A stretch of 59,120 nucleotides of DNA from Syntrophomonadaceae bacterium (GCA_007119615.1 SKPH01000001.1:1-59120), one strand, 5' to 3'. Numbered from the stretch's first letter, positions 23,170-56,979 are shown. The notes: a model not told the origin generated them from the sequence alone. A program made the numbers and translations.

Positions 23170-23217
23170 AGCTGAAGAGCAGGCCGCAGGGTAAAGGAGG
23201 AGCAGAGGATAAAAGTT

Positions 23218-23670: not shown

Positions 23671-23692
23671 AGGAAGGTTGTGAAGTAAGACC

Positions 23693-37944: not shown

Positions 37945-37968
37945 GATAGGACTCCTTTCCGCATAATT

Positions 37969-39645
37969 TTATATCGGTATGGTTACGCTGATCCGTGTTC
38001 CTTCACCGGGTCGGGAATCAATTCTGCAGGCGCCTCCCAACAGCAGGGCTCGTTCCTGAATGCTGGCCAGGCCCAGGCGATTGTGAAGTTGCGGAGTATC
38101 GGCAGGTTCCGTATTTATTCCGGACCCGTTGTCTTCCACGGAAAGATTCACCTCATGGTCCTGAATATCAAGGCAGACTTTGACTTTGGTCGCGCTGGAG
38201 TGCTTTATTACATTTGTCAGCGCTTCCTGCAGGATCCTGAATAAAGCAACTTCTATATTCGAAGCCAATCTCTGATTTTCCCCATTAACCTTAAGTTCGA
38301 TAGGAAGATTATTCTTTTCGGAAATGTCAAAAACGTGAGTTTCAACAGCTGGAATCAACCCGTAATTGTCCAGAATAATCGGGCGCAGGTCGTACAGAAT
38401 ACGCCTTACTTCCTGGATTTGCTCACTTAATACATTCGTGATATCGGTGATTTCAGAATGCCATTTTTGCGATTCGGCCTTTTCGGCAGATGAGATTCGC
38501 TGTAGTCGGTACCAGATGGCTATCAGGGATTGGATTATGCCGTCATGCAGATCGGAAGCCAAACGCTTGCGCTCATCTTCCTGTGCTGTAGTCAGTTTAT
38601 CCACCAGCTGGTGCAGCAGTTGTTCTTTTTGGCCAAGTTTTTCGATTAAAGCCGCATTTTCCATGGCAACCGCGGTGGCGCGGGCAATGGCGAAAATAAT
38701 TTCTATTTCCTCGCTGTCGAAGCCGCCTGACTCCAGAGGCCGATCCAGCTGCATAATGCCGATGGTTTTTCCTTTACTAAGAATTGGGACCAGCAAAACC
38801 CAGCTGTATGCAAAATCCTCTATAATCTCCCTGGGGAGCATCCTGGATATGTTCTCCGGGGTTATCACTACCGGTTGCTCTGTTTTTATAGCCCGTTTGA
38901 TACCCGGGAAAAGTCTTGCGCCTTTTAAGGCTTTAAATTTTTTTTTCAATTCGGGATCATAACTTCCCACAGCGACTGCCGGAATCAGGGTCTGATCTAT
39001 CTCGTTCAGTAGGTATATACAGTTTTTTGCTGAAAAGAGGTCTGCTGTTAGCTGAGTAACGACATGAAGAACCTGTCTTAGATCTAAAGTGGAGCTGATG
39101 GTGTTAACTAACTCCAGCCAGACGGCAAGCTTTCTCAGGTGGCGATCTTTTTGTCTCCGGAAGAGTGACTCCTGGATGATGTCGGCCATATGGCGGCCCA
39201 AAGAGACTGCTTTGGCCAGCATATACTGCCCGCTCCGGTAGTCGGTGTTGAAGATACCGATTTCCATCGTACCGACAGGATCTCCGGCCTTTAAAAGGAC
39301 CGGAAAAGTGGTAGAAATGACTGGGGAAAGGGGCTCCAGCAACTTTTTCTTCTGCAGGTTTTCTTCATCAGACAGGTAATCTTTTAATTGAGAACATCTT
39401 TCCAGATGAGCGGTACCACCGGTATCCGCTTCTTCCCCGTTTTTTGAAGCATGCCAGCATACCACATCTTTGTCATCTCGAACCAGCATCAGGCTGGCCT
39501 GCCCGAAATCAAAATAGTCAACAGAAGTTTGCAGGGTATTTTGCAGGGAGGTTTTTACCTGCTTAATTGTTGTAAAGCCGGAGCTAACACGGCAGATCAA
39601 AATCAGTTCCGGCCTGGCCTTTGGGTCAGGTATGTGCTTTAGCAA
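37969..39645 (-). CDS. cytoplasmic sensor histidine kinase: GAF-like N-terminal sensory region, then HisKA_3 and HATPase_c
   Basis: No TM segments. H-box EDERKRLASDLHDGIIQSL, N-box EALTNVIKHS and G-box VEDNGSGI. TTG start after GGGTGG. Confidence 0.85.
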   Translation of the reverse strand: MLKHIPDPKARPELILICRVSSGFTTIKQVKTSLQNTLQTSVDYFDFGQASLMLVRDDKDVVCWHASKNGEEADTGGTAHLERCSQLKDYLSDEENLQKKKLLEPLSPVISTTFPVLLKAGDPVGTMEIGIFNTDYRSGQYMLAKAVSLGRHMADIIQESLFRRQKDRHLRKLAVWLELVNTISSTLDLRQVLHVVTQLTADLFSAKNCIYLLNEIDQTLIPAVAVGSYDPELKKKFKALKGARLFPGIKRAIKTEQPVVITPENISRMLPREIIEDFAYSWVLLVPILSKGKTIGIMQLDRPLESGGFDSEEIEIIFAIARATAVAMENAALIEKLGQKEQLLHQLVDKLTTAQEDERKRLASDLHDGIIQSLIAIWYRLQRISSAEKAESQKWHSEITDITNVLSEQIQEVRRILYDLRPIILDNYGLIPAVETHVFDISEKNNLPIELKVNGENQRLASNIEVALFRILQEALTNVIKHSSATKVKVCLDIQDHEVNLSVEDNGSGINTEPADTPQLHNRLGLASIQERALLLGGACRIDSRPGEGTRISVTIPI

Positions 39646-39749: not shown

Positions 39750-39808
39750 CCGAAGGTGTTAGCTCCCATTTCACTCTTTTTAACCTTGATTCCATGCTTT
39801 TTAGGGAT
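39750..39808 (+). promoter_or_regulatory. copy A of the conserved ~60-nt upstream element
   Basis: CCGAAGGTGTTAGCTCCCATTTCACTCTTTTTAACCTTGATTCCATGCTTTTTAGGGAT. It lies 192 nt upstream of the ATG at 40001 and is near-identical to copy B. Confidence 0.8.
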
Positions 39809-40000
39809 TTTATTATTGTCTGTCTTTGTTTAATATTTAGTTAATGGACTTGCACCCGGAGATAATTCTTTCAGCAAAATCCGGAGTGATGAAGTGGGTG
39901 CTTTTAAAGCCGGGAGTTTGGAGCAGGTTAAGTTATGTTTGCGTTTCAACCTGCATTTTTTGTCTTTCGAAAATGATCAAGCTGCCGGAGGGTGGGTGCG

Positions 40001-40804
40001 ATGACCTGGAAATCTTTTTATAAGACCGGAGAAAAGTTAGATTATCACTCTTTTGAGTGGCGCAACCATATTGACGACATGGTATTTGGTCCTGACAGCA
40101 GGGAATCAGAGCAGTTAAAAGAACTTCTAACCCGCTACCCGGTTCAAACAGCCCTCGATGTTGCCTGTGGGAACGGAGATACTGCGATTTTTCTGGCCGC
40201 AATGGGTAAAAATGTTACAGCGATGGATCAGGATATTTCTCGGATTAAAAGGGTTCATTTGAAAAGCATTCTGGCCGGAGTCCAACTTGAAACTGCCTGT
40301 GGTGATATGCGCGATCTTTCCAGTGTATACCGGCATAAATGTAACCTGATCATGTGTTTGCAAAATTCATTGTCTCGACTGATAGACGAAGCCGATATAT
40401 GGGGAACCCTTGCTCAGATGTATCTGGCGCTTGAACCCGGAGGACTGCTGGTGATTCAAATGTTTGATTACGATCGCCTTTTTCAGGAAAAAAGGCCTTC
40501 CTTTTCCGAAATTTGCGGCTATAACAGCGAGCTTGGAGTTAAAACTTTTTTTGAATATGAACGCAATAAATCAAATGCGAAATTTATTTTTGAAGTCTCC
40601 AGCCAATATTCTGCGGGAAGAAAAGCAGATCGGATCGTTTTCCCGGTGAGACCGATTTTTCAGAAAGAACTGGATATGTGGCTGGCTGAGCTGGGGTTCA
40701 GAAAACTTGATAATTGCGAAGAGGTTAAAGGCAGCTATATATCGGGAGAAACCTGGCAAACGGTGACGGCAGCTTTTCGGCCGGGTGTTACAGATAACCA
40801 CTAA
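40001..40804 (+). CDS. class I SAM-dependent methyltransferase
   Basis: Motif I LDVACGNGD. ATG 40001 lies 9 nt after GGAGG (the track start is GTG 39992). Confidence 0.75.
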   Translation: MTWKSFYKTGEKLDYHSFEWRNHIDDMVFGPDSRESEQLKELLTRYPVQTALDVACGNGDTAIFLAAMGKNVTAMDQDISRIKRVHLKSILAGVQLETACGDMRDLSSVYRHKCNLIMCLQNSLSRLIDEADIWGTLAQMYLALEPGGLLVIQMFDYDRLFQEKRPSFSEICGYNSELGVKTFFEYERNKSNAKFIFEVSSQYSAGRKADRIVFPVRPIFQKELDMWLAELGFRKLDNCEEVKGSYISGETWQTVTAAFRPGVTDNH

Positions 40805-40817
40805 AGGAGGAGTTTAG

Positions 40818-41564
40818 ATGCGTTTACAGGGAAAGGTTGTGATTGTTACCGGTGCAAGTAAAGGAATTGGTGAGGCAGTCTCCCTGGGCCTGGCCCGTGA
40901 AGGAGCTGATCTGGTCCTGGTAAGCCGCAAGATCAAAGCAGATGAGCAGGTCGTTCTGGAAGCAAAAAAAATGGGTCGCCGGGTACTGGTTAAGCAGGTT
41001 GATGTTGGTGATAACGACCAGGTAACTGAGATGGTTGACGAGACTATAGATACTTTTGGCCGGGTTGACGCACTGTTTAATAATGCCGGTATCAGTAAGC
41101 CGGCTATGCTTTGGAAAATGACTCCTGAGCAGTGGGAAGAGGTGCTTAGAATAAATCTAACCGGTACCTTTTACTGCATCCGGGCGGTGGCAAAGCCGAT
41201 GATAGAAAAACAATCAGGTTCGATTATTAATGTAACATCCTCTGCCGGTCTGCTTGGAACGATCGGGCAGGTTAATTATACAGCGGCCAAAGGAGGGGTT
41301 TACGCTATGGGCAGGTCTGCAGCCAAAGAACTGGCCCGTTATGGGATCAGAGTGAATACGATTGCACCGATGGCTGAAACCGAGATGACGCAGGTCATTG
41401 CCAATGATCCCAAGTTTAAGGCAAAGTACCTGGAGCGAATTCCACTGGGGCGTTTCGGCCTTCCGGAGGAAATTGCGCCGGCGGTTGTATTTTTAGTGTC
41501 GGATGAATCGAGTTATATCACCGGGCAGACTATCTGCATTGACGGCGGCCTGGTAATGCCTTAA
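40818..41564 (+). CDS. short-chain dehydrogenase/reductase (FabG / 3-hydroxyacyl-CoA dehydrogenase-like)
   Basis: VTGASKGIGEA, NNAGI and the catalytic YTAAKGG (YxxxK). Confidence 0.85.
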   Translation: MRLQGKVVIVTGASKGIGEAVSLGLAREGADLVLVSRKIKADEQVVLEAKKMGRRVLVKQVDVGDNDQVTEMVDETIDTFGRVDALFNNAGISKPAMLWKMTPEQWEEVLRINLTGTFYCIRAVAKPMIEKQSGSIINVTSSAGLLGTIGQVNYTAAKGGVYAMGRSAAKELARYGIRVNTIAPMAETEMTQVIANDPKFKAKYLERIPLGRFGLPEEIAPAVVFLVSDESSYITGQTICIDGGLVMP

Positions 41565-41610
41565 ACTTTATGTAAACTCGCACATGAAAACTATTTGAGG
41601 AGGGATGGTT

Positions 41611-42765
41611 ATGCCTAAAGATGTGGCAATCATCGGAGTGGGGCAAAGTGCTTTTGTCAGAGGTTATGAAGGCTCGATCCGGGAACTTTCATTCGAAGCT
41701 TACAGGGAAGCAATGCAGGATGCGGGTATTACTTCATCGGAGGTGGATGCCTCTATAGTCTGCTCCGCTCCCGAGTATGACAAACAGCGCAGCCCTTCAG
41801 GCCTGATTGCAGAGTACCTGGGATTGAATCCACAACCTACCTTTGCCATTGAGAGCGTCTGCTCGTCTAGCACAACCGGGATCAGAACGGCATATGCATT
41901 GATAAAAAGCGGTTTACATGATCTGGTTGCAGTGATCGGTTTTCAAAAAATGTCGGAGATTTCTTCTGCTGATTCCCAGGAGCGTATGGGCCGCGGCGCT
42001 GATATTATGTGGGAATCTCCTTTCGGCACGACGATGCCGGCATACTATGCCATGCATGCCCGGTCCCATTTCAACACTTTCGGCAGTACGGAGAAAGATC
42101 TTGCCCTGATCAGGGTAAAGGCGGCTAAGTATGGCCAGTTAAATGATAAAGCCGTTTACCGCAAGGATCTTGCCCTGGATCAGGTTTTGAACTCCGATTA
42201 TGTTACTACCCCTTTAAAAAGGTTTGATTGTTGCGCCAACGCTGACGGATCCTCCTGTATTATTTTAGCTTCTGCGGAAAAAGCCAGAGAACTTTCAGCC
42301 AAAACTGTATGGATTATGGGTCTGGGGTCGGCCACCGCATCTTTGAGCATGACCGGCCGGAATAGCTACGACGGACTGGAGAGTGTGCGCCTGGCTGCCC
42401 GGCAGGCATATGAAATGGCCTCTCTGACACCCGGGGATATTGATGTCGCCGAGGTGCACGACTGCTTTACTATTGCCGAACTGATGGCTTACGAAAACCT
42501 CGGGTTCGCAGAACCCGGCAGGGGAGTGGAGCTTATCCGGGACGGAGAAACTTACCTTGAAGGCAGGATTCCGGTAAATGTTGACGGAGGGCTTTTATCT
42601 AAAGGGCATCCGATCGGAGCTACCGGGGGCTCCCAGGTGAGGACTATTGTACTTCAGCTTCGCGGAGAGGCCGGAGAAATTCAGGTTCCGGGTGCGGAAA
42701 TTGGCCTGGTTCATAATGTTGGCGGCGTGGGTATATATGGAAATGTAATCATCCTGGGAAGCTGA
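41611..42765 (+). CDS. SCP-x/BbsB-type thiolase-like protein
   Basis: ESVCSSSTTG (nucleophilic Cys), GHPIGATGG and HNVGG. This clade normally partners with a DUF35 OB-fold protein. Confidence 0.75.
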   Translation: MPKDVAIIGVGQSAFVRGYEGSIRELSFEAYREAMQDAGITSSEVDASIVCSAPEYDKQRSPSGLIAEYLGLNPQPTFAIESVCSSSTTGIRTAYALIKSGLHDLVAVIGFQKMSEISSADSQERMGRGADIMWESPFGTTMPAYYAMHARSHFNTFGSTEKDLALIRVKAAKYGQLNDKAVYRKDLALDQVLNSDYVTTPLKRFDCCANADGSSCIILASAEKARELSAKTVWIMGLGSATASLSMTGRNSYDGLESVRLAARQAYEMASLTPGDIDVAEVHDCFTIAELMAYENLGFAEPGRGVELIRDGETYLEGRIPVNVDGGLLSKGHPIGATGGSQVRTIVLQLRGEAGEIQVPGAEIGLVHNVGGVGIYGNVIILGS

Positions 42766-42781
42766 AAGGGGCCGGACCTGT

Positions 42782-43648
42782 TTGAGGACACCAGTAGTTG
42801 ACTTTCATATTCATCCAATCTTTTACGACAAGTTTTATGTTGAAAGCGCGCTTAACTGGATCAAGGAGATGCACGCTGATAAAGATTGGGATCAGTTTTA
42901 TCAGACCTATTCCGATCCGGATTTCTTTGTAAACTACCTGAAGGAAAACGGTGTCGATTATGGTGTAGTGATGGCCGATATATGTCCGGCGGTAACCGGT
43001 GTATGTACCAACGAATATGTCCTCGATTTTTGCAACGGCAGGGATGCCCTGGTACCGTTTGCCAGTATTAACCCATATTTAACCGTCCAAACAGGAAGAG
43101 AGCTGCAGCGCTTGATTGGTGAAGGTTTCCGGGGAGTTAAACTCTATCCTACTTATCAGCATTATTTCCCCAACCAGCGCTTTCTCTACCCCCTGTACAG
43201 CCTGGCTGAAGAATTGAAAGTGCCGCTAATGGTCCATACCGGTTCTTCTGTGTTCAGAGGAGCAAAATTAAAGTACGGAGATCCTCTCTACCTTGATGAA
43301 GTTGCTGTTGATTTCCCGGGTTTAAAAATTATTCTGGTCCACAGCGGTAGGGGGTTCTGGTACGATCGCGCTTTTCTATTAACCCGGTTGCATGACAATG
43401 TCTACATGGAAGTCGCCGGGCTGCCTCCACAAAAATTATTGGAATATTTCCCAGAACTTGAAAGAATTACAGATAAGGTTATATTTGGTTCAGATTGGCC
43501 GGGCATAACAGATCTGAAAGGAAATATTGAATCAATCCGGCAGCTACCGCTGAGCGCAGAGGCTATAAAAAATATTCTTGGAGGCAATGCCGTCAGATTG
43601 CTGGGTTTGCCAACTGTGAATTATCGGAAAGACGACAGAATGTCTTAA
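42782..43648 (+). CDS. amidohydrolase-2 family metal-dependent hydrolase/(de)carboxylase
   Basis: N-terminal HxH (VVDFHIHP), LVHSGRG and FGSDWP, as in the ACMSD/LigW/LigI fold family. Confidence 0.7.
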   Translation: MRTPVVDFHIHPIFYDKFYVESALNWIKEMHADKDWDQFYQTYSDPDFFVNYLKENGVDYGVVMADICPAVTGVCTNEYVLDFCNGRDALVPFASINPYLTVQTGRELQRLIGEGFRGVKLYPTYQHYFPNQRFLYPLYSLAEELKVPLMVHTGSSVFRGAKLKYGDPLYLDEVAVDFPGLKIILVHSGRGFWYDRAFLLTRLHDNVYMEVAGLPPQKLLEYFPELERITDKVIFGSDWPGITDLKGNIESIRQLPLSAEAIKNILGGNAVRLLGLPTVNYRKDDRMS

Positions 43649-43981
43649 TAGAGAAAATAAAAAAGGAAATTATTTTTATTTGTAGAATTTGAAAGATTGA
43701 AACTTTAAGGGGTGGTTGTTAATAAAAGTTATGGAGATCAAGGCTTTGCAGGATATTGTTTGATTTATTGCTGCTTATTGATATATGCGCAGATTTGTAA
43801 AACGGCAGTATGGATGCTTCTCATTTTTCTTGAAAAACTCGAAAAATGTATTAATAAGGCAGCACCGGTAATTCTGCTTAGTCAACTACCGACCGGGCAT
43901 GGCCGGTTGGGGGTGTGCATGCACTGAAGCAATGTTGAATTAAGGCCCATGCAGTGTTTATAAACTGGAGGTGTCACCACG

Positions 43982-45013
43982 ATGGATAGTTTTGATCCCC
44001 TGAATATACTCGTAGCTTTACAACCCGGATTGGGAAGCCCGGTTGAGTACGAAGAACTGATTAAAGAGCGGTTTCCTGAGGAAGTGAGGACTGGAAAAAT
44101 AAAGATCAGGCTGATCCAGGATGGCTCCGCTTCATCTACCCCTGATGAATACCTTGATACGCATATTATAGGAGCCGGAGTAGTTGTGGAAAGGGTCCCG
44201 GAGATGAAAAATCTGCAGTGGGTAATGACGTTCAGCGCCGGAATTGATCACTGGGAAAAATGGGGCAAACTACCCGGGCATGTAGCGTTGACCAACCTTC
44301 CGGGGGGTTCGGGGATTCCGATTTCTGAATTTGTAATCGGTCTGATGCTGAATCTTGCAAAAAAATATAACCAGCTCTGGGATCAGCAGAAAGAGAGAAA
44401 GTTCATCCGTGTTCGCGGTGAAGAGCTTTATAAAAAAACCGTTGGCATTATCGGACTCGGGGGAATTGGCCGGCAGATTGCGAAGCGTGCCAAAGCGTTC
44501 GACATGAAAGTGATCGGGACGGATATCAACACTGCAGATATTCCCCACGTTGACGAAGTCTACTTAAGCAATGAGTCTGATCAAGTAATCCGTCAAAGCG
44601 ATTACCTGATTCTCGCCTGCCCGGAGACAGAAGAAACCCGGGGAATGATCAATGAGAGATCGCTCAGGTTGATGAAAAATACAGCTTACCTGATAAACTG
44701 CGCTCGCGGATCTCTGATCATAAAGGAAGATTTAATTAAAGCCCTGAATGAAGAGTGGATTGCAGGAGCGGCCAACGATACCCACTGGATTAAAAAGCCA
44801 CTTCCTTCTTACCTTCCTGCAGAAGACGAACTGTGGGCCTGTAAAAACATTCTGATTACCCCCCATATTTCCAGCTGGAGTGATCAGTATGCACCCAGGT
44901 TCGGCGGTGTGTTTGTTGATAATATTGAACGTTTTTTAAATAAAGAACCACTCTTAAACGTTGCACCCGGTTTTGAGGGCGATCCGCAATGGCTGAAAAA
45001 TGTTAATGCTTAA
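43982..45013 (+). CDS. D-isomer-specific 2-hydroxyacid dehydrogenase (NAD-binding)
   Basis: GIIGLGGIGRQIA (GxGxxGR), NCARGSLI (catalytic Arg) and TPHISS (catalytic His). Confidence 0.8.
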   Translation: MDSFDPLNILVALQPGLGSPVEYEELIKERFPEEVRTGKIKIRLIQDGSASSTPDEYLDTHIIGAGVVVERVPEMKNLQWVMTFSAGIDHWEKWGKLPGHVALTNLPGGSGIPISEFVIGLMLNLAKKYNQLWDQQKERKFIRVRGEELYKKTVGIIGLGGIGRQIAKRAKAFDMKVIGTDINTADIPHVDEVYLSNESDQVIRQSDYLILACPETEETRGMINERSLRLMKNTAYLINCARGSLIIKEDLIKALNEEWIAGAANDTHWIKKPLPSYLPAEDELWACKNILITPHISSWSDQYAPRFGGVFVDNIERFLNKEPLLNVAPGFEGDPQWLKNVNA

Positions 45014-45025
45014 AGGAGAAAATAT

Positions 45026-46180
45026 TTGAACCTATCAGAATTAACAGCACCATTCGAAAAGGCTCTTACAGAACCTGGAGAACAGGTCAGGCAATGGAAG
45101 GCAAAGCAGGGGGGCAGAGCCGTCGGATTTCTGATGACCGATGTTCCCGAGGAGTTGATCCACGCCGCCGGATTTTTCCCATATGGAATTGCCGGTGGAA
45201 ACGCGGAGATGGAAGCTGCTGATGCGCATCTGCAGCCCTGGATATGTTCTTATGCCCGTAACTGCCTTGCTCTGGCCTTGGGAGGAAAGCTGGACTTCCT
45301 GGATGGACTGATAGTTCCACAAAATTGTGATACCACCCGGATGTTTTCGGATCTATTGAACCATATCCGGCCTTTTCCGTACATGGATATTTTCCGCATG
45401 CCCAGGCAGGTCGGCCGTTCCAGCGCCGGCAGCTATCTGATTGGCGAGATGGAAAGACTTAAATACGGGCTTGAGCAGTATGCCGGAAAGCCGATCGATC
45501 ATAGTGATCTAAGAAGCAGCATTGCTCTCTATAATCGCAACAGGGAACTTTTGCGCAGGATTGCTGATATCCATGCTCAGAATCCCAACCTGATCAGCAG
45601 CCGGGATCTGTATACCCTGATCAATGGCTCCATGATTATGCCCAGGGAAGAGGTCGGCGAGTTGTTGACCGCGATTAGAGAGGTATTGGAAGGATTAACC
45701 GGAAGCGGCAATGCCGGAAACCAGGTCCGGCTGTTATTATCAGGAACACTGCTGGAACCATTGGAAATCCTCGATTTAATCGATCAGTGTGGGGGTACAG
45801 TCATCGGAGACGATTTTCAGAATGGGTTTCGCTATATTGAGAGTGATGTCGCAATTAAAGATGATCTTTTGGATGCCCTTGCCGAACGTCAGCTTAACCG
45901 TATTCCTTCTTCTGCATTTGATATCGAGCACAGGCAGAGAAGATATTATTTAACAGAAGTAGCTGAGGATAAAAATGCTTCCGGTGTTATTTTCCTGCAT
46001 CTTGGTTTTTGTGAACCTGAAAACTTTGACAGCTATGATAATTTGCAGGCTATGAAGAGGGCCGGTATTCCTGCCATCCGAATTGAAACCCAGTTTGGAC
46101 GATCAACCCTGGGGCAAATACGGACCAGGATTCAGGCCTTTATGGAGATGGTGGGAGGTGACGACAGTGGCTGCCGGTGA
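45026..46180 (+). CDS. 2-hydroxyacyl-CoA dehydratase / benzoyl-CoA reductase (BcrB/C, HgdA/B) family subunit
   Basis: A 384-aa ORF with conserved Cys contexts WICSYARNC, PQNCDTTRM and GFCEPENFD. It is adjacent to, and translationally coupled with, a paralogous subunit. Confidence 0.7.
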   Translation: MNLSELTAPFEKALTEPGEQVRQWKAKQGGRAVGFLMTDVPEELIHAAGFFPYGIAGGNAEMEAADAHLQPWICSYARNCLALALGGKLDFLDGLIVPQNCDTTRMFSDLLNHIRPFPYMDIFRMPRQVGRSSAGSYLIGEMERLKYGLEQYAGKPIDHSDLRSSIALYNRNRELLRRIADIHAQNPNLISSRDLYTLINGSMIMPREEVGELLTAIREVLEGLTGSGNAGNQVRLLLSGTLLEPLEILDLIDQCGGTVIGDDFQNGFRYIESDVAIKDDLLDALAERQLNRIPSSAFDIEHRQRRYYLTEVAEDKNASGVIFLHLGFCEPENFDSYDNLQAMKRAGIPAIRIETQFGRSTLGQIRTRIQAFMEMVGGDDSGCR

Positions 46181-47363
46181 GGTTTTTAAAACTGCCTCTT
46201 TAATGAAAGAATTGATGACCCGCTACAACGAGACCGGAAAAGAAGCAAAGGACAGCGGTATCCCGGTGGCCTGGGTCACAGCCGTTTCTCCGGTGGAAAT
46301 TATTTATGCCGCCGGGCTATTTCCGTATTATCCGGAGAATTTTGGTGCGGTTGCTGCTGCCAGGAAAGTTGCCGATAAATTATCAGCTTTTGCAGAAGCC
46401 AGGGGGTATGCCCGGGATCTATGCGGTTACGCCCGCTGCGGTATCGGTGATGCTTATGCTACAGAACATCCGGTTGGAGAAATATTGAGCCCTGATCTTT
46501 TATTCTGCTGCAATACCCAGTGTGGCAGCCTGCCTAAATGGTTTGAAGTAGCGGGGAGATTTTACAATGTGCCGTATTTTTTACTTGATGCGCCCAGGGT
46601 GGGACTTGAAACAGACCAGCTATGCAATAGCTATTATGTAGAACAACTTCATGAAATGATCGCATTTATTGAAAAACTGACCGGCAATCCTTTCGATTAT
46701 GACCGCCTGTCCGAAGTGCTGGCTCTTTCCAACGAAGCCTGCCGCCTGTGGAATGAGATTTTAGAGACTGCCGCCTTAAAACCGGCCCCCTTTGGTTTTT
46801 TTGACGCCAGTTTTCACATGGCGCCAATTGTAACTTTAAGGGGAACCCGGGAGGCCGTAGATTATTACCGGGCGTTAAAAGAAGAAATTGATGAAAGGAT
46901 AGAACAGGGAATAACAGCAATACCGGATGAGCGCTACAAAATATATTTTGATCACATTCCCTGCTGGCCCAGATTGCGCTGGTTTTCTGATTTATTCGCT
47001 TCACATGGGGCGCTGGTAGCGGTTTCACAATATACTCATTCCTGGGCATATTCCTTTGATCTGGAACGCCCCCTGGAAAGCCTGGCCGAAAACTATACCC
47101 ATGAATTTGTTAACCGCTGTTTCGATTATCGGGTGGAGAGAAAGATTAACCTGATGGAAAAATACGGGGTTGACGGTTTTGTATTATTTTCAAACCGCAG
47201 TTGTAAGCCCAATGCGATCGGTCTTTACGCAAAAAGCAAACTGATCAGAGAAAAAACAGGACTGCCGGGAGTTGTGTTTGAAGCGGATATGTCTGATCTG
47301 CGCTTTTTTTCTGAAGCACAGGTGCTGGCGAAACTGGAATCATTTTTTGAACAGCTGAAATAA
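46167..47363 (+). CDS. 2-hydroxyacyl-CoA dehydratase / benzoyl-CoA reductase family subunit (second subunit)
   Basis: GTG 46167 lies 6 nt after GGGAGGTG; the track start 46083 overlaps the preceding gene by about 100 nt. Cys contexts: DLCGYARCG, FCCNTQCGS and NRSCKPN. Confidence 0.7.
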   Translation: MAAGEVFKTASLMKELMTRYNETGKEAKDSGIPVAWVTAVSPVEIIYAAGLFPYYPENFGAVAAARKVADKLSAFAEARGYARDLCGYARCGIGDAYATEHPVGEILSPDLLFCCNTQCGSLPKWFEVAGRFYNVPYFLLDAPRVGLETDQLCNSYYVEQLHEMIAFIEKLTGNPFDYDRLSEVLALSNEACRLWNEILETAALKPAPFGFFDASFHMAPIVTLRGTREAVDYYRALKEEIDERIEQGITAIPDERYKIYFDHIPCWPRLRWFSDLFASHGALVAVSQYTHSWAYSFDLERPLESLAENYTHEFVNRCFDYRVERKINLMEKYGVDGFVLFSNRSCKPNAIGLYAKSKLIREKTGLPGVVFEADMSDLRFFSEAQVLAKLESFFEQLK

Positions 47364-47391
47364 GATCATACTAACGAGGAGAGGATTAACG

Positions 47392-49140
47392 TTGAAGAAA
47401 TTAATGACTGGAAACGAAGCTTTTGCCTACGGAGCATACCTGGGCGGAGTCCGCGTAGGGGCAGCTTATCCCGGCACTCCCAGTTCGGAGATTCTGGATA
47501 ATTTTTCTAAATATCCGGGTGTTTTCGCCGAATGGTCCCCCAACGAAAAGGTTTCCATGGATGTGGCTATTGGAGCGGCGTATGCGGGCACCAGGGCGAT
47601 GTGCGTGATGAAACATGTCGGTTTGAATGTTGCCGCAGATTCGTTCTTTTATGCCGTCTATACCGGGGTAAAGGGCGGCCTGGTGATAGTTTGTGCCGAC
47701 GACCCTGATATGCACAGTTCGCAAAATGAGCAGGACAACCGTAACTATGCCAAGTTTGCCAAATGCCCGATGCTCGAACCTTCCGACAGTGAAGAAGCCA
47801 AACAGTTTGTCGGTATGGCCCTGGATTTGAGCGAGCAATTTGAAACACCGGTTCTGGTCCGAAGCGTGACTCGTTTATCGCACTCATCTACTCCGGTGGA
47901 TGTTACAGAAGCGGTTCCAGCACCGCCTTCGGAAGAGCTGCCGTTGTTTGAACGCGATGCGCAGAGATATGTAATGGTTCCCTCCAATGCCCGGCGACGG
48001 CACCCGATCGTTGAAGAACGCCTGAAAAAACTTGCCGAGCATGCTGAATCGATGCCGATAAATTATATTGAACCCGGGAACGGGGAGCTTGGCATTGTCA
48101 GCGCCGGGGTAAACTATTATTATGCCAAAGAGGTCTTTCCCGATGCTACTTTCCTGAAGCTGGGAATGGTTTATCCTCTCCCTGAGAAGTTAATCCGGGA
48201 ATTTGCAGCAAAGGTAAAAACCGTTGTCGTAGTAGAGGAGCTCGATCCTTTCCTGGAAGAACAACTGCGGTTGATGGGTATCGAGGTCAAAGGCAAAGAT
48301 ATCTTCCCGCTGATTGGCGAATTTAGTCCTTCCCTGGTTCGCAGCTGTGCAGTTGAAGCCGGTTTGATCGAAGCCCCGGAGGCCCCTCCCGAGATTAAAA
48401 CAGAACTGGAGCGGCCGGTCCGGCCCCCGATGCTCTGTCCCGGCTGCGGCCACCGGGCCCTCTTTCATGTGCTTAAGGAAGCGGGTGTCCTGATCACCGG
48501 CGATATTGGCTGTTACACGCTGGGGTGGGCTCCCCCGCTCAGCGCTATGCATACTACAGGTTGCATGGGTGCAAGTATCGGTGTGGCTCACGGTATTGAC
48601 AAAGGTGGCGTAAAAGATGAAGTAGTTGCCGTCATCGGCGACTCGACATTTCTGCACTCGGGTATCCATCCGCTGATCGATGTTCTGTACAATCAGGGAG
48701 TTACTACCACCATTATTTCTGACAACAGCGCCACAGCGATGACCGGATTCCAGGAACACCCGGGTACCGGAATAACGATCCAGGATCAGACGACCACGGC
48801 GGTGGATCTGGAAAAATTGATCCGGGGCATAGGTTTTGAAAAAGTTGATGTCGTTGACTCCTACGACATTGAAAAAATGGCTGAAACACTGCAGGATCAT
48901 CTTAAAAGTGGAATGCCTTCGGTTATTATCGCCCGCCATCCCTGCGTGCTGAACACGAGAGTAAGAGAAAAGCCCCCGGAAGTTGATGTAGAACTGTGCC
49001 TGAACTGTGGTATTTGCCTGGATATCGGTTGTTCTCCACTTGTGCAGGAAGAGGATCACGTGCGAATCGATACCCTGCTGTGCAACGGATGCGGCCTTTG
49101 TGTGAAAGTTTGTCCCCAGGAAGCGATCATTTCGGAGTAA
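47392..49140 (+). CDS. iorA: indolepyruvate (arylpyruvate):ferredoxin oxidoreductase alpha subunit
   Basis: A 582-aa ORF with the TPP motif GDIGCYTLG...GDSTFLHSG and the C-terminal 2x[4Fe-4S] motifs CLNCGICLDIGCSP and CNGCGLCVKVCP. Confidence 0.85.
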   Translation: MKKLMTGNEAFAYGAYLGGVRVGAAYPGTPSSEILDNFSKYPGVFAEWSPNEKVSMDVAIGAAYAGTRAMCVMKHVGLNVAADSFFYAVYTGVKGGLVIVCADDPDMHSSQNEQDNRNYAKFAKCPMLEPSDSEEAKQFVGMALDLSEQFETPVLVRSVTRLSHSSTPVDVTEAVPAPPSEELPLFERDAQRYVMVPSNARRRHPIVEERLKKLAEHAESMPINYIEPGNGELGIVSAGVNYYYAKEVFPDATFLKLGMVYPLPEKLIREFAAKVKTVVVVEELDPFLEEQLRLMGIEVKGKDIFPLIGEFSPSLVRSCAVEAGLIEAPEAPPEIKTELERPVRPPMLCPGCGHRALFHVLKEAGVLITGDIGCYTLGWAPPLSAMHTTGCMGASIGVAHGIDKGGVKDEVVAVIGDSTFLHSGIHPLIDVLYNQGVTTTIISDNSATAMTGFQEHPGTGITIQDQTTTAVDLEKLIRGIGFEKVDVVDSYDIEKMAETLQDHLKSGMPSVIIARHPCVLNTRVREKPPEVDVELCLNCGICLDIGCSPLVQEEDHVRIDTLLCNGCGLCVKVCPQEAIISE

Positions 49141-49183
49141 GCCGGCGCGACTATTAAGTAAAAACAGAGAGGGAGGCTGAAAT

Positions 49184-49768
49184 ATGAAGAAAACAGACTT
49201 TTTAATGGCCGGGGTTGGCGGCCAGGGGACCATTCTGGCCAGTAATATATTGGCTGAGGTGGGGCTGCACCTGGGCTATGATGTAAAAAAAGCAGAAGTA
49301 CACGGAATGGCCCAGCGGGGCGGACAGGTAGACAGCCATGTCCGATGGGGAGAAAAAGTATACTCCCCATTGGTGGAGGAAAACAGCGTTGATTACATTG
49401 TAGGGTTTGAAATGCTGGAGGCTGCCCGCTTCCCGCATTTTATGAAAAAAGATGGCGTAGCTGTGGTTAACGATTACCGTATCAACCCACCCCTGGTAAA
49501 TCTGGGTAAAGCCAGCTATCCATCCAAGGAGGACATTGAGTCACTGCTCCTTACCAGGGCCGAAAAGGTGTATTGGATTGAAGGCACAAAGATTGCCGGG
49601 GAACTGGGCAACCCGGCCGTAGTCGGTGTGGTTCTGCTGGGGGCTCTGTCCAACCTGGTCGGAGGGGATAAAGAGGTATGGCTCGAGGTTATCGGGAAGA
49701 TGGTGCCGCCAAAGTTTGTTGATCTTAACCTTGAAGCTTTTGCAGCGGGCCGTCAGGTTACCGCTTAG
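49184..49768 (+). CDS. iorB: indolepyruvate:ferredoxin oxidoreductase beta subunit
   Basis: A 194-aa ORF with the gamma-domain motif GVGGQGTILAS, located immediately downstream of iorA. Confidence 0.85.
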   Translation: MKKTDFLMAGVGGQGTILASNILAEVGLHLGYDVKKAEVHGMAQRGGQVDSHVRWGEKVYSPLVEENSVDYIVGFEMLEAARFPHFMKKDGVAVVNDYRINPPLVNLGKASYPSKEDIESLLLTRAEKVYWIEGTKIAGELGNPAVVGVVLLGALSNLVGGDKEVWLEVIGKMVPPKFVDLNLEAFAAGRQVTA

Positions 49769-49801
49769 AAGGGACAAACATCTGAAAGAGGAGGGGATAC
49801 T

Positions 49802-51364
49802 GTGAATTTTGCTTCTTACGGCATTATAAACGCAAAGAAATATCCGGAAAAGGAGTTTCTGATTGAATGCTGTCCTTCCAGAAATGAACGAAGAGCTCTT
49901 TCCTGGAAAGAGTTTAATGAGCAAACCAACCGTGTGGCCAACTATTTGCAAAAACAGCTCGGAGTAAAAAAAGATGATTTTGTGTTGCACCTGCAGATGA
50001 ATAGTCTGGAGTGGATGGTTACCTATCATGCTATTTTGAGAGTGGGAGCAGTTGCGGTTCCACTTAATTTCCGCTTTGCTTCCTCAGATATTAAGTATGC
50101 AGCAGAGGCCAGCAATCCAAAAGTTTTTATTTTGAGTGAAGGGTTTCTGGAGAAAGTAGAGCCGATTCGGGAAGAGATGAAAACAATCAGCACTTATATC
50201 TGTATAGGCGATAATGTTCCTGCGGACATGATTCCCTACGCGGATGTTCTTAGCGATTCCAGTCCCGAAGATGTGCTCGTCGAAGTAGACGCTAGCGATC
50301 CGGCGGAATTGATGTTTACCTCGGGAACTACCGGCCCTCCCAAGCCTGTATGCCAGGCTCATGATACGCTATACCAGATCGGCATAGGTAATGCCCTGAC
50401 TTATGGAGAGGGGCACGAAACGGTTTACCTGGCTGCCCATCCCCTTTACCACAGCGGCAGCCTGTTTCTATCCTTCCCCTGTTACCTGGCGGGAGGCAAG
50501 ATTGTGATGCTTCTTGAACTTGATGATCCCAGGTATGTCCTCGATACCATCGTCAATGAAAAAATTAATAATGGTTGGGTTACGGTCCCGACTATGTCCG
50601 ATTCGATCAATGCGATTAAAAAAGGGGTCATCGATATAGATGAGTATGATTTTTCTCATGTTACCGGAAACATAGTAATCGGAGCTCAACCGGTTCCTTC
50701 GACTTTATTTAAGGATATGAAAAAGCTGTTGCCGTTTAGAACCGGTAATATTTATGGGATCACAGAAGGCGGCGGAGGCGGTACACTTAATCTTTACGAC
50801 GATGAAGTTTTAAAACGGCCCGGTTCTATTGGCAATCCGACTTTCAATGTTGCAGCCCGGGTTGTTGATGACCATGGCAACGATGTTCCGGTTGGAGAGG
50901 TCGGGGAATTGCTATTGAAAGGCCCTCGCAATATGAAAGAATATTTTAAAAATCCGGAGATGACCGCAAGAGCAATTCGGGATGGTTGGCTTTATACCGG
51001 GGACCTGGTGAAACAGGATGAAGACGGCTTTATCTATATCGCCGACCGGAAAAAAGATTTGATTATCAGGGGTGGAGAGAATATCTTCCCGGTGGAAATT
51101 GAAGATGTTTTGCGCCGCAACCCGAAGGTTGCCGATGTGGCGGTAATCGGATACCCGCATGAGCGTTACGTGGAGATTGCGATGGCCGTGGTACAGCTCT
51201 ATCCTGACGAAACAATGACAGAGCAGGAAGTGGTTGACTTCTGCAAGGAGCAGGGGCTGGCCAGGTATAAATGGCCGGAAAAAGTAGTTTTTGCTCCGGT
51301 AATGCGTAATGTTACCGGCAAAATTGACAAGCCCCGGCTGCGGGAAGAGTACATCGAAGGCTAA
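49802..51364 (+). CDS. AMP-forming acyl-/aryl-CoA ligase
   Basis: FTSGTTGPPKP (AMP-binding motif I), YGITEGGG, YTGDL and GGENIFPVEIE. GTG start after GAGGAGGGG. Confidence 0.85.
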   Translation: MNFASYGIINAKKYPEKEFLIECCPSRNERRALSWKEFNEQTNRVANYLQKQLGVKKDDFVLHLQMNSLEWMVTYHAILRVGAVAVPLNFRFASSDIKYAAEASNPKVFILSEGFLEKVEPIREEMKTISTYICIGDNVPADMIPYADVLSDSSPEDVLVEVDASDPAELMFTSGTTGPPKPVCQAHDTLYQIGIGNALTYGEGHETVYLAAHPLYHSGSLFLSFPCYLAGGKIVMLLELDDPRYVLDTIVNEKINNGWVTVPTMSDSINAIKKGVIDIDEYDFSHVTGNIVIGAQPVPSTLFKDMKKLLPFRTGNIYGITEGGGGGTLNLYDDEVLKRPGSIGNPTFNVAARVVDDHGNDVPVGEVGELLLKGPRNMKEYFKNPEMTARAIRDGWLYTGDLVKQDEDGFIYIADRKKDLIIRGGENIFPVEIEDVLRRNPKVADVAVIGYPHERYVEIAMAVVQLYPDETMTEQEVVDFCKEQGLARYKWPEKVVFAPVMRNVTGKIDKPRLREEYIEG

Positions 51365-51482
51365 CAACGGTTGAACCTGACCTGGAGTCTACATGTCACC
51401 CGACAGCAGTATATGGCTGGTAATCGAAGAGTGAGTTACCGGGAGCTGTAAATGGCAAAGGATCAGTTGAGGTGCCTTAACT

Positions 51483-52685
51483 TTGCGGATAGCGGAAGGC
51501 TGGAAAGTTGCGCTTGCAGGAGCCGGTGTGAATTTCTTTATGAGCATCCCCTATGCCTGGAGCATCATTGCATCCGGCCTGATTCAGCAATGGGGATGGA
51601 GCGCGGTTCAGGCAGCCTTCCCTTACACGGTTTTTTTAATCAGTTACTCATTATTTATGGCGCCGGTCGGAAGATGGCAGGACAGGGCGGGGCCGCGCCG
51701 GGTGATTGCTAAAGGTGGCTTAATTTTAGGAAGCGCATCTCTTATAAGCGCGTTTTTTATTAACCCGGTGGCGCTGGCGTTTCTGTGGGGAGGAGTTTAC
51801 GGGTTCGGAGCAGCCTGCTGCTATGCTTCCGCAACACCGGCGGCAATGAAATGGTTTCCGGCAGGAGAAAAAGGACTGGTCACCGGGGTAGTTGTAACCG
51901 GTGCGGGAATTTCAGCATTTGTGATGGCGCCCCTGATTTATTTCCTGACGGGTTACGGCATGAGAACCACTTTTGTGGTTCTCGGTTTTTTATTACTGGG
52001 TGGTATAACTCTACTTTCACGCTTAATTAATAATCCTCCCGGTCAGGTTTTCCGGCCGAAAGAGTTCCCCTTATCCGGACGATGGTACACTATCCTCCGG
52101 ATCCCTCAATTTGCCATGCTCTGGTTTATGTTCTGGGTCTCTACCGGCATTGGAGTGACCTTCGTGACTCACCTTGATACTATGGCCCGTGTTCAGGTAT
52201 CCTTTGGCCTTGGATACATCCTGGTGGCTCTTTTTGCTTTTTTTAATGCTGTTGGAAGAATGGCTGCCGGGGTGATAACTGATCGTATCGGGAGCACAAG
52301 GGCTATAACTCTTGATTTCAGTATCACACTGCTGGCCCTGTTCTTTCTTCTGCAGGCTAACTCTCCTTTATCGATGGGGCTAATAGTTTCGGGATTGGGT
52401 TTGACCTACGGGGGACTTTATACAATTTTTCCGGCAACCGTCGCCTCTTTTTTCGGAGAAAAAGATTTGGGGCTGGTTTACGGTTTAATTTTTACAGCAC
52501 TGGGAGCCGGGGGATTTTTCCCTTTAATAACGGGGCACCTTTTTGGTCGGCAGGGTGATTTTTCCGGAGCGTTTTTATTGCTGGTCATTTTTTGCGCAGC
52601 AGGTTTGGTGTTGTCGCTTTTCCTAAAAAAACCGGCTATCCGAAATGCGGTGGAAAATCCTGAGTCGCCTGTAAATCAGAAGTAA
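51483..52685 (+). CDS. MFS transporter (oxalate/formate-antiporter-like subfamily)
   Basis: A 400-aa ORF with about 12 TM segments. TTG start 8 nt after GAGGTG. Confidence 0.7.
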   Translation: MRIAEGWKVALAGAGVNFFMSIPYAWSIIASGLIQQWGWSAVQAAFPYTVFLISYSLFMAPVGRWQDRAGPRRVIAKGGLILGSASLISAFFINPVALAFLWGGVYGFGAACCYASATPAAMKWFPAGEKGLVTGVVVTGAGISAFVMAPLIYFLTGYGMRTTFVVLGFLLLGGITLLSRLINNPPGQVFRPKEFPLSGRWYTILRIPQFAMLWFMFWVSTGIGVTFVTHLDTMARVQVSFGLGYILVALFAFFNAVGRMAAGVITDRIGSTRAITLDFSITLLALFFLLQANSPLSMGLIVSGLGLTYGGLYTIFPATVASFFGEKDLGLVYGLIFTALGAGGFFPLITGHLFGRQGDFSGAFLLLVIFCAAGLVLSLFLKKPAIRNAVENPESPVNQK

Positions 52686-52840: not shown

Positions 52841-54412
52841 TTATGCACCGTACCTGTCACGCAGAACCCGGTGCAGGGTTTTGCCGGTTGCCGTAAGAGG
52901 CATTTCTTCTTCCTTGATAAAATCTATCGATTTAGGCCGTTTATAGCCGGCAATTTTATCCTTACAGAATGCAGCTATATCGCCGGCAAGTTCTTCACTT
53001 GGCTGAAATCCGTTATTGAGGACGATCACGGCTTTTACTGCTTCTCCCCACTTATCATCGGGGATCCCGATTACAGCAACATTCTTAACTGCAGGGTGAG
53101 CGGATACAGTATTTTCGACCTCGGAAGGATAAACATTTTCCCCGCCGGTGATAATCATATTTTGCTTTCGATCAACCAGGTAATAGTATCCTTCTTCGTC
53201 TCTCAGGGCCATATCTCCGGCAGAGCACCAGTTTCCGTGAAACGCTGCACTGGTTTTCTCCGGATCTTTCCAGTATTCTTTAAAAATGATTGGAGAACGG
53301 CTGTAAAGTTCCCCTACCTCCCCTTCGGGCACCTCATTCTTATTTTCATCGAGGAGTTTAATTCGATCTGTGCCATATATTTCCCGCCCAATCGAACCAA
53401 GCTTGGCAAATTGTTCTTCAGGCCTCAGATAGGTAACCAGGCCGGCTTCTGTTGACCCGTAGGCTTCCCAGAGTTCCGCTGACTTGAAATAATCCATAAT
53501 GGCCAGTTTTAGTTCTTTTCTGGCCGGGGCTGAAGAGATCAGCAGCTGCCTGATGCAGCTGACGTCGTATTTCTGTTTTATTTCGTCAGGCAGGCTGAGG
53601 ATCATAATATAGTGAGTCGGGACCAGGGAAGTATAGGTGATTTTGTATTCGGAGATAGTTTTTAGCAGATCTTCAGGGTCAAACGTAACCATGCTGTAGA
53701 CCATTGCCGGCGCACCCAGGATTGTGTAGGCGAAAGAGTAGTAGATCGAATTCACGTGGCACATCGGCATTACCAGCAGTATTTTATCATCAGTCCTGAC
53801 TCCCATATTCATATTGCTGAGCAGGTACTGGGCGGTATAACTTTCATGGGTTCTGACTGCGCCTTTCGGTTTGCCGGTAGTCCCGGAGGTATACATTATC
53901 GTCCAGGTATCAGATGCGTCAACCGGCACATCAGGCTCCCCGGGGGGGCTCTGGTCGATAAATTTTTCATAATCGATGAAACCTTCAGGTTCTTCTCCAT
54001 CTCCTATGGAGATAAAGTTATCTGCGGGGATGGTTTGTAAATTGTCACGTATACTGTTGACTCCTTCTGTAAAGGGGGCTTCAACTATGAAAGCTTTACA
54101 TTCTGCATGATTGACAATGTATTCATATTCCAGGGGTGTGAGGCGGAACATGATTGGTACGGCTACCTGACCGCCCTTGGCGCAGGCTGCGTAGATGTCC
54201 ATCCACTCTACCCTGTTGTAAGCAAGCACGGCGACCCGATCCCCATATCCTACGCCCATACTTTGCAGTCCATTGGCAATGCGGCATGCTCTATCGTTCC
54301 ATTCTCTGAATGTAAAACTCCTGGTTTTATCCTGGCAGCCCAATTGATCAGGATATTTTAATGCATTTGTTTTTAGGGCGGTTCCAATGTGCATCCACTT
54401 GCTGGTATTCAT
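52841..54412 (-). CDS. AMP-forming acyl-/aryl-CoA ligase (candidate benzoate-CoA ligase type)
   Basis: YTSGTTGKPKG, YGSTEAG, GDMALRDEEGYYYLVDRK and GGENVYPSEVE. Confidence 0.85.
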   Translation of the reverse strand: MNTSKWMHIGTALKTNALKYPDQLGCQDKTRSFTFREWNDRACRIANGLQSMGVGYGDRVAVLAYNRVEWMDIYAACAKGGQVAVPIMFRLTPLEYEYIVNHAECKAFIVEAPFTEGVNSIRDNLQTIPADNFISIGDGEEPEGFIDYEKFIDQSPPGEPDVPVDASDTWTIMYTSGTTGKPKGAVRTHESYTAQYLLSNMNMGVRTDDKILLVMPMCHVNSIYYSFAYTILGAPAMVYSMVTFDPEDLLKTISEYKITYTSLVPTHYIMILSLPDEIKQKYDVSCIRQLLISSAPARKELKLAIMDYFKSAELWEAYGSTEAGLVTYLRPEEQFAKLGSIGREIYGTDRIKLLDENKNEVPEGEVGELYSRSPIIFKEYWKDPEKTSAAFHGNWCSAGDMALRDEEGYYYLVDRKQNMIITGGENVYPSEVENTVSAHPAVKNVAVIGIPDDKWGEAVKAVIVLNNGFQPSEELAGDIAAFCKDKIAGYKRPKSIDFIKEEEMPLTATGKTLHRVLRDRYGA

Positions 54413-56883: not shown

Positions 56884-56979
56884 AATTTGTTTCGAATCTC
56901 CCGGTTATCTTCGATCTGTACGCCGGGGAACGCGGTCGTGATTTCTGCCAACCGCCTTCATGAATACCAGGGTGTTCAA

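Follow-up and report, generated by a model that had tools for sequence, protein, structure and literature searches.

Two overlapping genes at positions 45026 to 47363 of a 59,120-nt stretch of DNA from a Syntrophomonadaceae bacterium (GCA_007119615.1 SKPH01000001.1:1-59120; hereafter the window) encode, as judged from their sequences, a two-subunit, oxygen-sensitive iron-sulfur enzyme of the 2-hydroxyacyl-CoA dehydratase (HAD) type and not of the class I benzoyl-CoA reductase (BCR-I) type. Both types belong to one family of radical [4Fe-4S] enzymes, and the reading that we favor, on balance, is that the pair dehydrates an (R)-aryl-lactyl-CoA, for example, phenyllactyl-CoA, feeding benzoyl-CoA. 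The analysis establishes the family membership, the cluster ligands, a beta subunit of the single-cluster kind, an activator ATPase in the genome, synteny among relatives, and co-occurrence with BamB. Altogether, the pair represents a new, uncharacterized clade among HAD enzymes of the dehydratase type, and its catabolic setting, with links to ligases and to indolepyruvate:ferredoxin oxidoreductase (Ior), is unusual. The two genes are as follows.

45026-46180, + strand: dehydratase beta subunit, HadC-like, 384 aa, TTG start (PF06050, NCBIfam, PDB, ligand alignment)
46167-47363, + strand: dehydratase alpha (catalytic) subunit, HadB-like, 398 aa, GTG start (PF06050, NCBIfam, PDB, ligand alignment)

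The gene pair and its cluster ligands

The alpha open reading frame (ORF) has two candidate starts, 46083 and 46167. The GTG at 46167, giving 398 aa, is supported, because a ribosome-binding site, GGGAGGTGA, lies 7 nt 5' of it and because homologues of 398 to 403 aa align from residue 1. With this start, alpha overlaps beta by 14 nt (beta stop codon, 46178-46180), an arrangement that fits translational coupling. PF06050 (HGD-D) matched both ORFs over their full length (E = 3e-81 and 2e-76, Pfam), and the two proteins are distant paralogues with 20% identity (E = 2e-8). A preliminary description of the window, made from the sequence alone, had proposed two coupled paralogous subunits of the HgdAB/BcrBC family and had quoted several Cys motifs. 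ORF lengths, overlap, and identity agree with the former proposal, the full-length PF06050 matches confirm the family, and all of the quoted motifs are present in the two ORFs.

Three Cys residues are invariant in each subunit, namely, C74, C101, and C329 of beta in an alignment of 80 homologues and C86, C119, and C346 of alpha in an alignment of 85. These residues match Cys of HadB/HadC, BzdO/BzdN, and MbdO, and the NRSCK motif is common to alpha and HadB. In BzdN, an [8Fe-9S] double-cubane cluster is bound by Cys36, Cys73, Cys100, Cys263, Cys293, and Cys327; the beta subunits of HAD enzymes, in contrast, carry a single one (PMC11971306). We therefore read the beta residues at the six BzdN double-cubane columns. 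BzdN itself shows C-C-C-C-C-C and HadC P-C-C-A-C-C; the window beta shows M-C-C-Q-S-C, that is, three of the six Cys, with M37, Q, and S at the distal ligand positions. For comparison, 82 loci from named genomes were mapped by tblastn, with orthologs defined by an alpha of at least 57% identity; in the column alignment, no member of this ortholog clade has all six double-cubane Cys together. C-C-C-C-C-C was found in control HGD-D pairs of the same lineage (G001 C27, G001 C22, and G009 C28) and also in the beta of a Desulfobacterales sister clade. These residues suggest that the window beta carries a single cluster, and no [8Fe-9S] cluster is expected. The six-cysteine test is a simple sequence rule for sorting dehydratase-type from reductase-type members of this often misannotated family.

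Both subunits scored highest against their Had counterparts. With NCBIfam models, alpha reached 256 bits for HadB, 167 for BcrB, and 137 for BzdO, and beta reached 200 for HadC, 182 for BcrC, and 137 for BzdN. The PDB members of the family available for comparison were HadBC, BzdNO, MbdNO, and the double-cubane cluster protein (DCCP); among them, alpha matched HadB with 205 bits, MbdO with 140, and BzdO with 133, and beta matched HadC with 172, MbdN with 137, and BzdN with 135. The DCCP match of alpha was weak (33 to 54 bits), and the pair, having two distinct subunits with three Cys each, is not of the DCCP type, which is a homodimer with a six-Cys site per monomer. In a maximum-likelihood tree that covered HadB, Bzd/Mbd, and the sister clade but not FldBC, HgdAB, LcdAB, and BcrBC, the pair stood in a separate clade (support, 100/99); a search seeded with HadB yielded a Had-like clade only. 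The phylogenetic placement called for in the preliminary description thus set the pair apart from HadB and from Bzd/Mbd; its deep nodes stayed a polytomy. We place the pair on the dehydratase side because of the six-cysteine test, the profile scores, and an adjoining D-2-hydroxyacid dehydrogenase gene, and not because of the tree topology. These data separate two possibilities that the preliminary description had combined in its third option: an aryl-CoA reductase is disfavored by the absence of three of the six double-cubane Cys from beta, and an aryl-lactyl-CoA dehydratase is the best-supported reading.

The activator ATPase in the genome and in relatives

The preliminary description had reported no activator in the window and had offered, as its first explanation, an activator encoded elsewhere. 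A PF01869 scan of the whole assembly that carries the window (G000; 1.06 Mb, about 70% complete) gave matches on contigs C47 and C53 only and none on the window contig, C38, and the genome search for BcrAD_BadFG ATPases that had been suggested led to a stand-alone activator on C47.

C47:1225-2016: stand-alone HgdC/HadI-type activator, 263 aa (TIGR00241, 296 bits)

This protein matches the TIGR00241 "acyl-CoA dehydratase activase" model (cut-off, 125 bits), and its best PDB matches are HadI (251 bits), MbdQ (239 bits), and HgdC (223 bits). Both bridging Cys are kept: C129 and C168 occupy the positions of C127 and C166, the residues that bind the bridging cluster in HgdC. Moreover, in an activator tree, the engB-linked activator clade groups, with moderate support (85/85), with activators inside related beta-alpha-activator operons. 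We regard the C47 ATPase as the best candidate activator of the window pair.

A similar arrangement prevails among relatives. No ATPase was present within 10 kb at about 50 of roughly 60 orthologous loci, and Desulfoscipio gibsoniae (DSM 7213, locus L006), which is cultivable, has the same core operon and no cis activator. ATPase homologues (49 to 65% identity) were found in all 14 other operon-bearing genomes searched; in the 12 of these whose operons lack an activator, the homologues therefore lie elsewhere. Thus, the activator is encoded in trans, which is the rule in this clade, and the strangeness implied by the preliminary description dissolves: the missing activator is an ordinary puzzle, and the operon architecture is not a discovery. 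The preliminary description had also named what would speak against it, namely, a dedicated activator just outside the window together with subunits clustering tightly with a characterized dehydratase; we found instead an activator in a housekeeping-like position and a pair in its own clade.

ATPase supply takes three forms within the one orthologous clade (noticed around L062, L063, L084, L060, and L086): an operon may lack a cis ATPase gene, have a single HgdC-like one, or have two. A single cis activator stands directly before beta at L075 (in a Thermincola metagenome-assembled genome [MAG]) and L097 and after alpha at L095. At L062 (912-2595), L063, and L084 (5263-6928), an ATPase gene pair lies beside an ortholog whose alpha has 67 to 75% identity; the two proteins are of 256 and 291 aa, and the larger one has a BzdQ-like N-terminal extension (KKEYWRWEESNW...). 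At L084, a gene for an M24 peptidase/creatinase-like protein separates the ATPase pair from beta.

The surroundings of the C47-type activator (C47:3-2750 in G000, locus L001) are conserved in their own right. engB precedes the activator in 14 of 14 relatives examined, and lon lies further upstream wherever the flank is long enough. On the 3' side, a convergent membrane-protein gene follows in 11 of the 14 and then, in most, a biotin-ligase-like gene; from their sequences, we read these genes as bioY and birA. Directly 3' of the activator in G000, G001, and G006 is a gene for a homologue of the LarA-type nickel-pincer 2-hydroxyacid racemase (427 bits, short of the cut-off, with the malate-racemase LarAH6 model). 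Such a protein could permit the use of L-2-hydroxy acids. It was rejected as a dedicated partner of the activator, since the linkage is confined to these three genomes and is absent in the other 11 relatives.

Other members of these families were encountered. The C53 matches (about 8.8 to 13.5 kb; L002 and L003) belong to a 1,468-aa protein with two BcrAD_BadFG ATPase domains, which is of a different, fused "CoA-substrate-specific enzyme activase" type and has about 1,450 aa in most relatives. The congener G001 carries a BzdNOPQ-like cluster (C27:11289-15327, L122) composed of a six-Cys beta-like subunit, a 490-aa alpha-like subunit, and two ATPase genes, one ATPase match containing an in-frame TGA, and it has further six-Cys HGD-D pairs on C22 and C47. 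Neither these six-Cys pairs nor the BzdNOPQ-like cluster is in the incomplete G000 assembly.

Operon context and the link to the benzoyl-CoA pathway

The window encodes a BamB- to BamI-like set at 15455-26229 (at the domain level) and an Oah/BamA equivalog match at 57766-58941 (584 bits; cut-off, 464), which corroborates the class II benzoyl-CoA reductase context recognized in the preliminary description. Upstream of the DUF35-Oah operon (56980-57039), there is an element of ~60 nt, a copy of which, with 85% identity, stands about 185 nt 5' of the initial dehydratase operon gene; it probably acts as a regulator or promoter site common to both operons. Of 41 relatives, 9 carry an ortholog together with BamB, 2 carry BamB alone, 30 carry neither, and none carries an ortholog alone (Fisher P = 1.6e-7, uncorrected for phylogeny). 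In this lineage, the clade travels only with the anaerobic benzoyl-CoA pathway. A PF00384 scan, made to see whether PadB is absent, gave several molybdopterin oxidoreductases of ambiguous assignment, both in G000 and in relatives.

The operon extends from 39992 to 52685 in the order methyltransferase, short-chain dehydrogenase/reductase (SDR), thiolase, Amidohydro_2, D-2-hydroxyacid dehydrogenase, beta, alpha, IorA, IorB, ligase, and major facilitator superfamily (MFS) transporter. Its genes and neighbors, apart from the pair, are as follows.

37210-39645, - strand: divergent two-component system, GAF-HisKA_3 kinase and LuxR-type regulator (Pfam); adjoins the operon in relatives, including D. 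gibsoniae
39750-39808, + strand: copy of the ~60-nt intergenic element (blastn of 56940-57110 against the window; 85% identical to 56980-57039)
39992-40804, + strand: S-adenosylmethionine (SAM)-methyltransferase-domain protein, first operon gene (Pfam Methyltransf_25/11); kept at the operon head in relatives
40818-41564, + strand: SDR, FabG-like, candidate 3-hydroxy-3-arylpropionyl-CoA dehydrogenase (Pfam adh_short, NCBIfam); syntenic in L008 and L036-L064
41605-42765, + strand: SCP2-type thiolase, candidate benzoylacetyl-CoA thiolase (Pfam Thiolase_C_1; PRK06064, 421 bits; CSS nucleophile and HDCF motifs)
42782-43648, + strand: Amidohydrolase_2 protein, candidate hydratase or decarboxylase (Pfam PF04909; no NCBIfam match)
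43982-45013, + strand: D-isomer-specific 2-hydroxyacid dehydrogenase, candidate arylpyruvate reductase (2-Hacid_dh_C, 177 bits; NCBIfam, 187 bits, below the equivalog cut-off)
47392-49140, + strand: IorA, indolepyruvate:ferredoxin oxidoreductase alpha (TIGR03336, 689 bits; cut-off, 650.9)
49184-49768, + strand: IorB (Pfam POR; NCBIfam IorB models, 227 bits)
49802-51364, + strand: AMP-forming acyl-CoA ligase LIG, candidate aryl-lactate-CoA ligase (Pfam AMP-binding); syntenic in relatives
51483-52685, + strand: MFS transporter, last operon gene (Pfam MFS_1)
52841-54412, - strand: second AMP-forming acyl-CoA ligase, LIG2; directly 5' of beta in many relatives
55588-56883, + strand: PaaK-family (phenylacetate-CoA-ligase-like) ligase (AMP-binding_C_2; NCBIfam PaaK, 377 and 349 bits, below the equivalog cut-offs)
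57226-57627, + strand: DUF35/OB-fold (zf-ChsH2) partner of the SCP2-type thiolase, 133 aa (tblastn, 60% identity to the L008 DUF35)

The D-2-hydroxyacid dehydrogenase gene ends 13 nt 5' of beta, and IorA begins 28 nt past the stop codon of alpha. An AT-rich gap of 333 nt (43649-43981) separates the Amidohydro_2 and D-2-hydroxyacid dehydrogenase genes and may contain an internal promoter for the dehydrogenase-dehydratase-Ior unit. The DUF35 gene is displaced to the head of the Oah operon, while in L008, L048, and L052 it lies between the thiolase and Amidohydro_2 genes; the Amidohydrolase_2 gene is kept in the SDR-thiolase-DUF35 module of many relatives. A fusion of 3-hydroxyacyl-CoA dehydrogenase with enoyl-CoA hydratase (HCDH-ECH), a thiolase, and a tripartite ATP-independent periplasmic (TRAP) transporter are also encoded nearby. 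Neither the operon nor the orthologous loci annotated with Pfam (L006 to L009) showed a CoA-transferase, and AMP-forming ligases occur instead; this absence is a feature of the pathway and not of the enzyme fold. Nor does the operon encode an acyl-CoA dehydrogenase or Etf. Because all three are absent from the operon, the enoyl-CoA product is probably oxidized rather than reduced.

The beta-alpha-IorA-IorB order is present in almost all orthologs and is the most conserved feature of the clade, which occurs mostly in Desulfotomaculia and Dethiobacteria. Orthologs are usually accompanied by a D-2-hydroxyacid dehydrogenase and AMP-forming ligases, often by an upstream SDR-thiolase-DUF35-Amidohydro_2 module, and in many genomes by PaaK-family ligases. 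A sister clade (L098-L115), found in Desulfobacterales, Syntrophobacteraceae, and related MAGs, has an alpha 43 to 46% identical to the window alpha and the order beta-alpha-activator. Because its beta keeps all six double-cubane Cys, it looks, from sequence features, like an uncharacterized enzyme of the reductase or DCCP type that has one HgdC-like ATPase in place of a BcrAD pair.

Proposed role, alternatives, and known systems

From this context, we infer the substrate, the direction of flux, the ATPase that serves the pair, and the role of IorAB. In the proposed pathway, the adjoining D-2-hydroxyacid dehydrogenase would reduce an arylpyruvate to the (R)-aryl-lactate, which would be converted to aryl-lactyl-CoA by an AMP-forming ligase and not by a CoA-transferase. 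The [4Fe-4S] cluster of alpha would then donate one electron to the thioester carbonyl, and the resulting ketyl radical would lose the alpha-hydroxyl group to yield cinnamoyl-CoA. The SDR, the thiolase/DUF35, and a hydratase of the same regulon would beta-oxidize this product to benzoyl-CoA and acetyl-CoA, and the class II (Bam) reductase pathway, which the window also encodes, would take up the benzoyl-CoA. A trans-encoded HgdC/HadI-type ATPase, with C47:1225-2016 as the best candidate, would deliver the priming electron, and ferredoxin reduced by the cotranscribed IorAB is a plausible electron source for this ATPase. IorAB could thus supply reduced ferredoxin for activation. Simple phenylalanine catabolism does not account for the near-obligate coupling to IorAB.

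Desulfococcus multivorans has been reported to form an analogous module, Dmul_24730-24900, specifically with phenylacetate or phenylpyruvate as the substrate (Doerries et al. 2016, PMC5109826). Besides IorAB, the module contains a "putative phenylpyruvate reductase" and a "predicted R-phenyllactate dehydratase" accompanied by an activator. Two ligases of ~520 aa, Hbd, a thiolase, and an HCDH-ECH fusion of 680 aa are also part of it, as are a TRAP transporter and a two-component system, and bam genes adjoin it. D. multivorans has no PadB and no PadEFGHI, phenyllactate supports its growth, and the route to benzoyl-CoA was called "unclear" (PMC5109826). Against this background, the beta-alpha-IorAB-ligase unit might serve strict anaerobes as a carbon elongation route for arylacetates that dispenses with the Pad alpha-oxidation enzymes, a proposal that we put forward tentatively and consider unlikely. 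A PaaK-type ligase would form phenylacetyl-CoA, IorAB running in reverse (reductive carboxylation with reduced ferredoxin) would form phenylpyruvate, and the D-2-hydroxyacid dehydrogenase, second ligase, and dehydratase would carry phenylpyruvate to cinnamoyl-CoA, one round of beta-oxidation of which would give benzoyl-CoA and acetyl-CoA. If true, such a route would explain the IorAB-dehydratase linkage, the use of ligases instead of a CoA-transferase, the lack of an aminotransferase in the operon, and the formation of the IorAB and dehydratase module by D. multivorans on phenylacetate.

Other roles for the pair were weighed. Dehydration of an aliphatic or other nonaromatic 2-hydroxyacyl-CoA (2-hydroxyisocaproyl-, 2-hydroxyglutaryl-, or lactyl-CoA), with IorAB acting as a broad 2-oxoacid:ferredoxin oxidoreductase in amino acid catabolism, appears improbable. 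HadBC, the closest characterized homologue, does use a leucine-derived substrate, both AMP-forming ligases match generic fatty-acyl-CoA ligase models (NCBIfam), and ordinary beta-oxidation genes are also present in the window. However, IorA passes an indolepyruvate-specific equivalog model, PaaK-family ligases accompany the operon in many genomes, the operon is restricted to BamB-bearing genomes among the 41 relatives, the ~60-nt element is common to it and the Oah operon, and phenylpyruvate and phenylacetate induce the analogue in D. multivorans. We give very little weight to an ATP-dependent class I-type reductase module for (substituted) aryl-CoA or enoyl-CoA whose BcrAD/BzdPQ-like ATPase is missing from the incomplete assembly. 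The beta-alpha gene order as in bcrCB and bzdNO, the aromatic catabolism context, the partial genome, and the ATPase pairs flanking the L062, L063, and L084 orthologs, with one ATPase bearing the BzdQ-like extension, would suit such a module; it is contradicted by the loss of three [8Fe-9S]-binding Cys from beta, which double-cubane paralogues of the same lineage keep, by similarity to Bcr, Bzd, and Mbd that is always below that to Had, by the adjoining D-2-hydroxyacid dehydrogenase, and by the class II reductase already encoded in the genome.

A pair that needs no ATPase and is primed directly by IorAB-reduced ferredoxin, the second option of the preliminary description, is an unnecessary assumption and can be given hardly any credence. 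The conserved beta-alpha-IorA-IorB order, the short distance from the alpha stop to IorA, and the many loci with no ATPase within 10 kb are what one would cite for it, but HgdC/HadI-type ATPases occur in every genome checked, and L075, L097, and L095 carry a cis activator. It is also disfavored by what is known of the family: to our knowledge, no HAD/BCR-I enzyme is primed without ATP, and the potential needed lies below that of ferredoxin.

Several observations weigh against our favored assignment of the pair as an aryl-lactyl-CoA dehydratase. The clade is itself biochemically uncharacterized, alpha is only 31% identical to HadB, and the NCBIfam equivalog cut-offs are far from reached (256 bits against 750 for HadB and 200 against 700 for HadC). 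The polytomy in the maximum-likelihood tree concerns the deep order among the window clade, HadB, Bzd/Mbd, and the sister clade; the gene order is that of bcrCB/bzdNO and not of hadBC; and the BzdPQ-like ATPase pairs beside the L062, L063, and L084 orthologs are a reductase-like trait. The D-2-hydroxyacid dehydrogenase adjoins the pair in most but not all orthologs, whereas IorAB almost always does, and because of this difference in constancy, the tight Ior coupling is not fully explained. As for the activator, orthologs of the C47 ATPase (at least 60% identity) are found in about 34 of 40 relatives and the dehydratase ortholog in only 8 of 40; being kept with or without the dehydratase operon, this ATPase is not dedicated to the pair and may chiefly serve other HGD-D pairs, of which the congener G001 has four or five. 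Further ATPases may be unassembled, G000 being about 70% complete. Finally, one 416-aa subunit is all that is listed for the D. multivorans dehydratase, together with a cis activator, a comparison made by description only.

If the pair is an aryl-lactyl-CoA dehydratase, sulfate-reducing and syntrophic Firmicutes seem to have adopted enzymes familiar from reductive Stickland fermentation for the complete oxidation of aromatic C2/C3 acids, that is, phenylalanine products, phenyllactate, and perhaps phenylacetate. The proteogenomic literature leaves open how phenylacetate or phenylpyruvate reaches benzoyl-CoA in such organisms without Pad enzymes, and the operon is a concrete candidate for this route. 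A 2026 paper on benzene degradation gives the sequence phenylpyruvate, phenyllactyl-CoA, cinnamoyl-CoA, and benzoyl-CoA as a hypothesis only, and our literature search found no paper characterizing the window clade or proposing a reverse-Ior route. The ortholog in the cultivable D. gibsoniae, which grows on phenylacetate and for which pad genes are reported, makes the candidate testable.

Among known systems, the D. multivorans module has the same list of enzyme functions as the window. It differs in gene order and in its published flow, which runs from phenyllactate to phenylpyruvate and then through a route left unresolved there, and its dehydratase is unlikely to be orthologous to the window pair. 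When the family and the genus to which a "Desulfococcus sp." MAG belongs were searched for a D. multivorans-type cluster, members of the six-Cys sister clade and IorAB genes standing alone were all that came up.

HadBC/HadI of Clostridioides difficile (PDB 3O3M and 4EHT) resembles the window system in its two PF06050 subunits with three Cys ligands each, a beta lacking the distal double-cubane ligands, NRSCK in alpha, an activator with two bridging Cys, and a D-2-hydroxyacid dehydrogenase partner. In contrast, the window pair forms a separate clade, has the beta-alpha order and an activator outside the operon, is accompanied by AMP-forming ligases and IorAB instead of a HadA-type CoA-transferase and AcdB/EtfBA, and would serve oxidative catabolism to benzoyl-CoA rather than Stickland reduction. 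The FldABC/FldI and FldH system of Clostridium sporogenes shares the proposed chemistry from arylpyruvate through (R)-aryl-lactate and aryl-lactyl-CoA to cinnamoyl-CoA. As described in PMC13416013, which cites Dickert et al. 2002, Fld belongs to the same enzyme family and needs an ATPase initiator. There, the complex includes the CoA-transferase FldA, and reduction of the enoyl-CoA yields an arylpropionate, unlike the ligases and predicted beta-oxidation of the window; a probable FldB (P0205) falls in the HadB clade and not in that of the window. BzdNOPQ, MbdNOPQ, and BcrCBAD differ from the window system in having an ATPase pair in the operon and six cluster Cys in the beta-like subunit, where the window beta has three, and their similarity to it is lower than that of Had. 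They share with it the superfamily, the N(C)-like then O(B)-like gene order, the alpha ligands (Cys95, Cys128, and Cys380 of BzdO), the need for an ATP-driven electron activation module, and the setting of aromatic catabolism.

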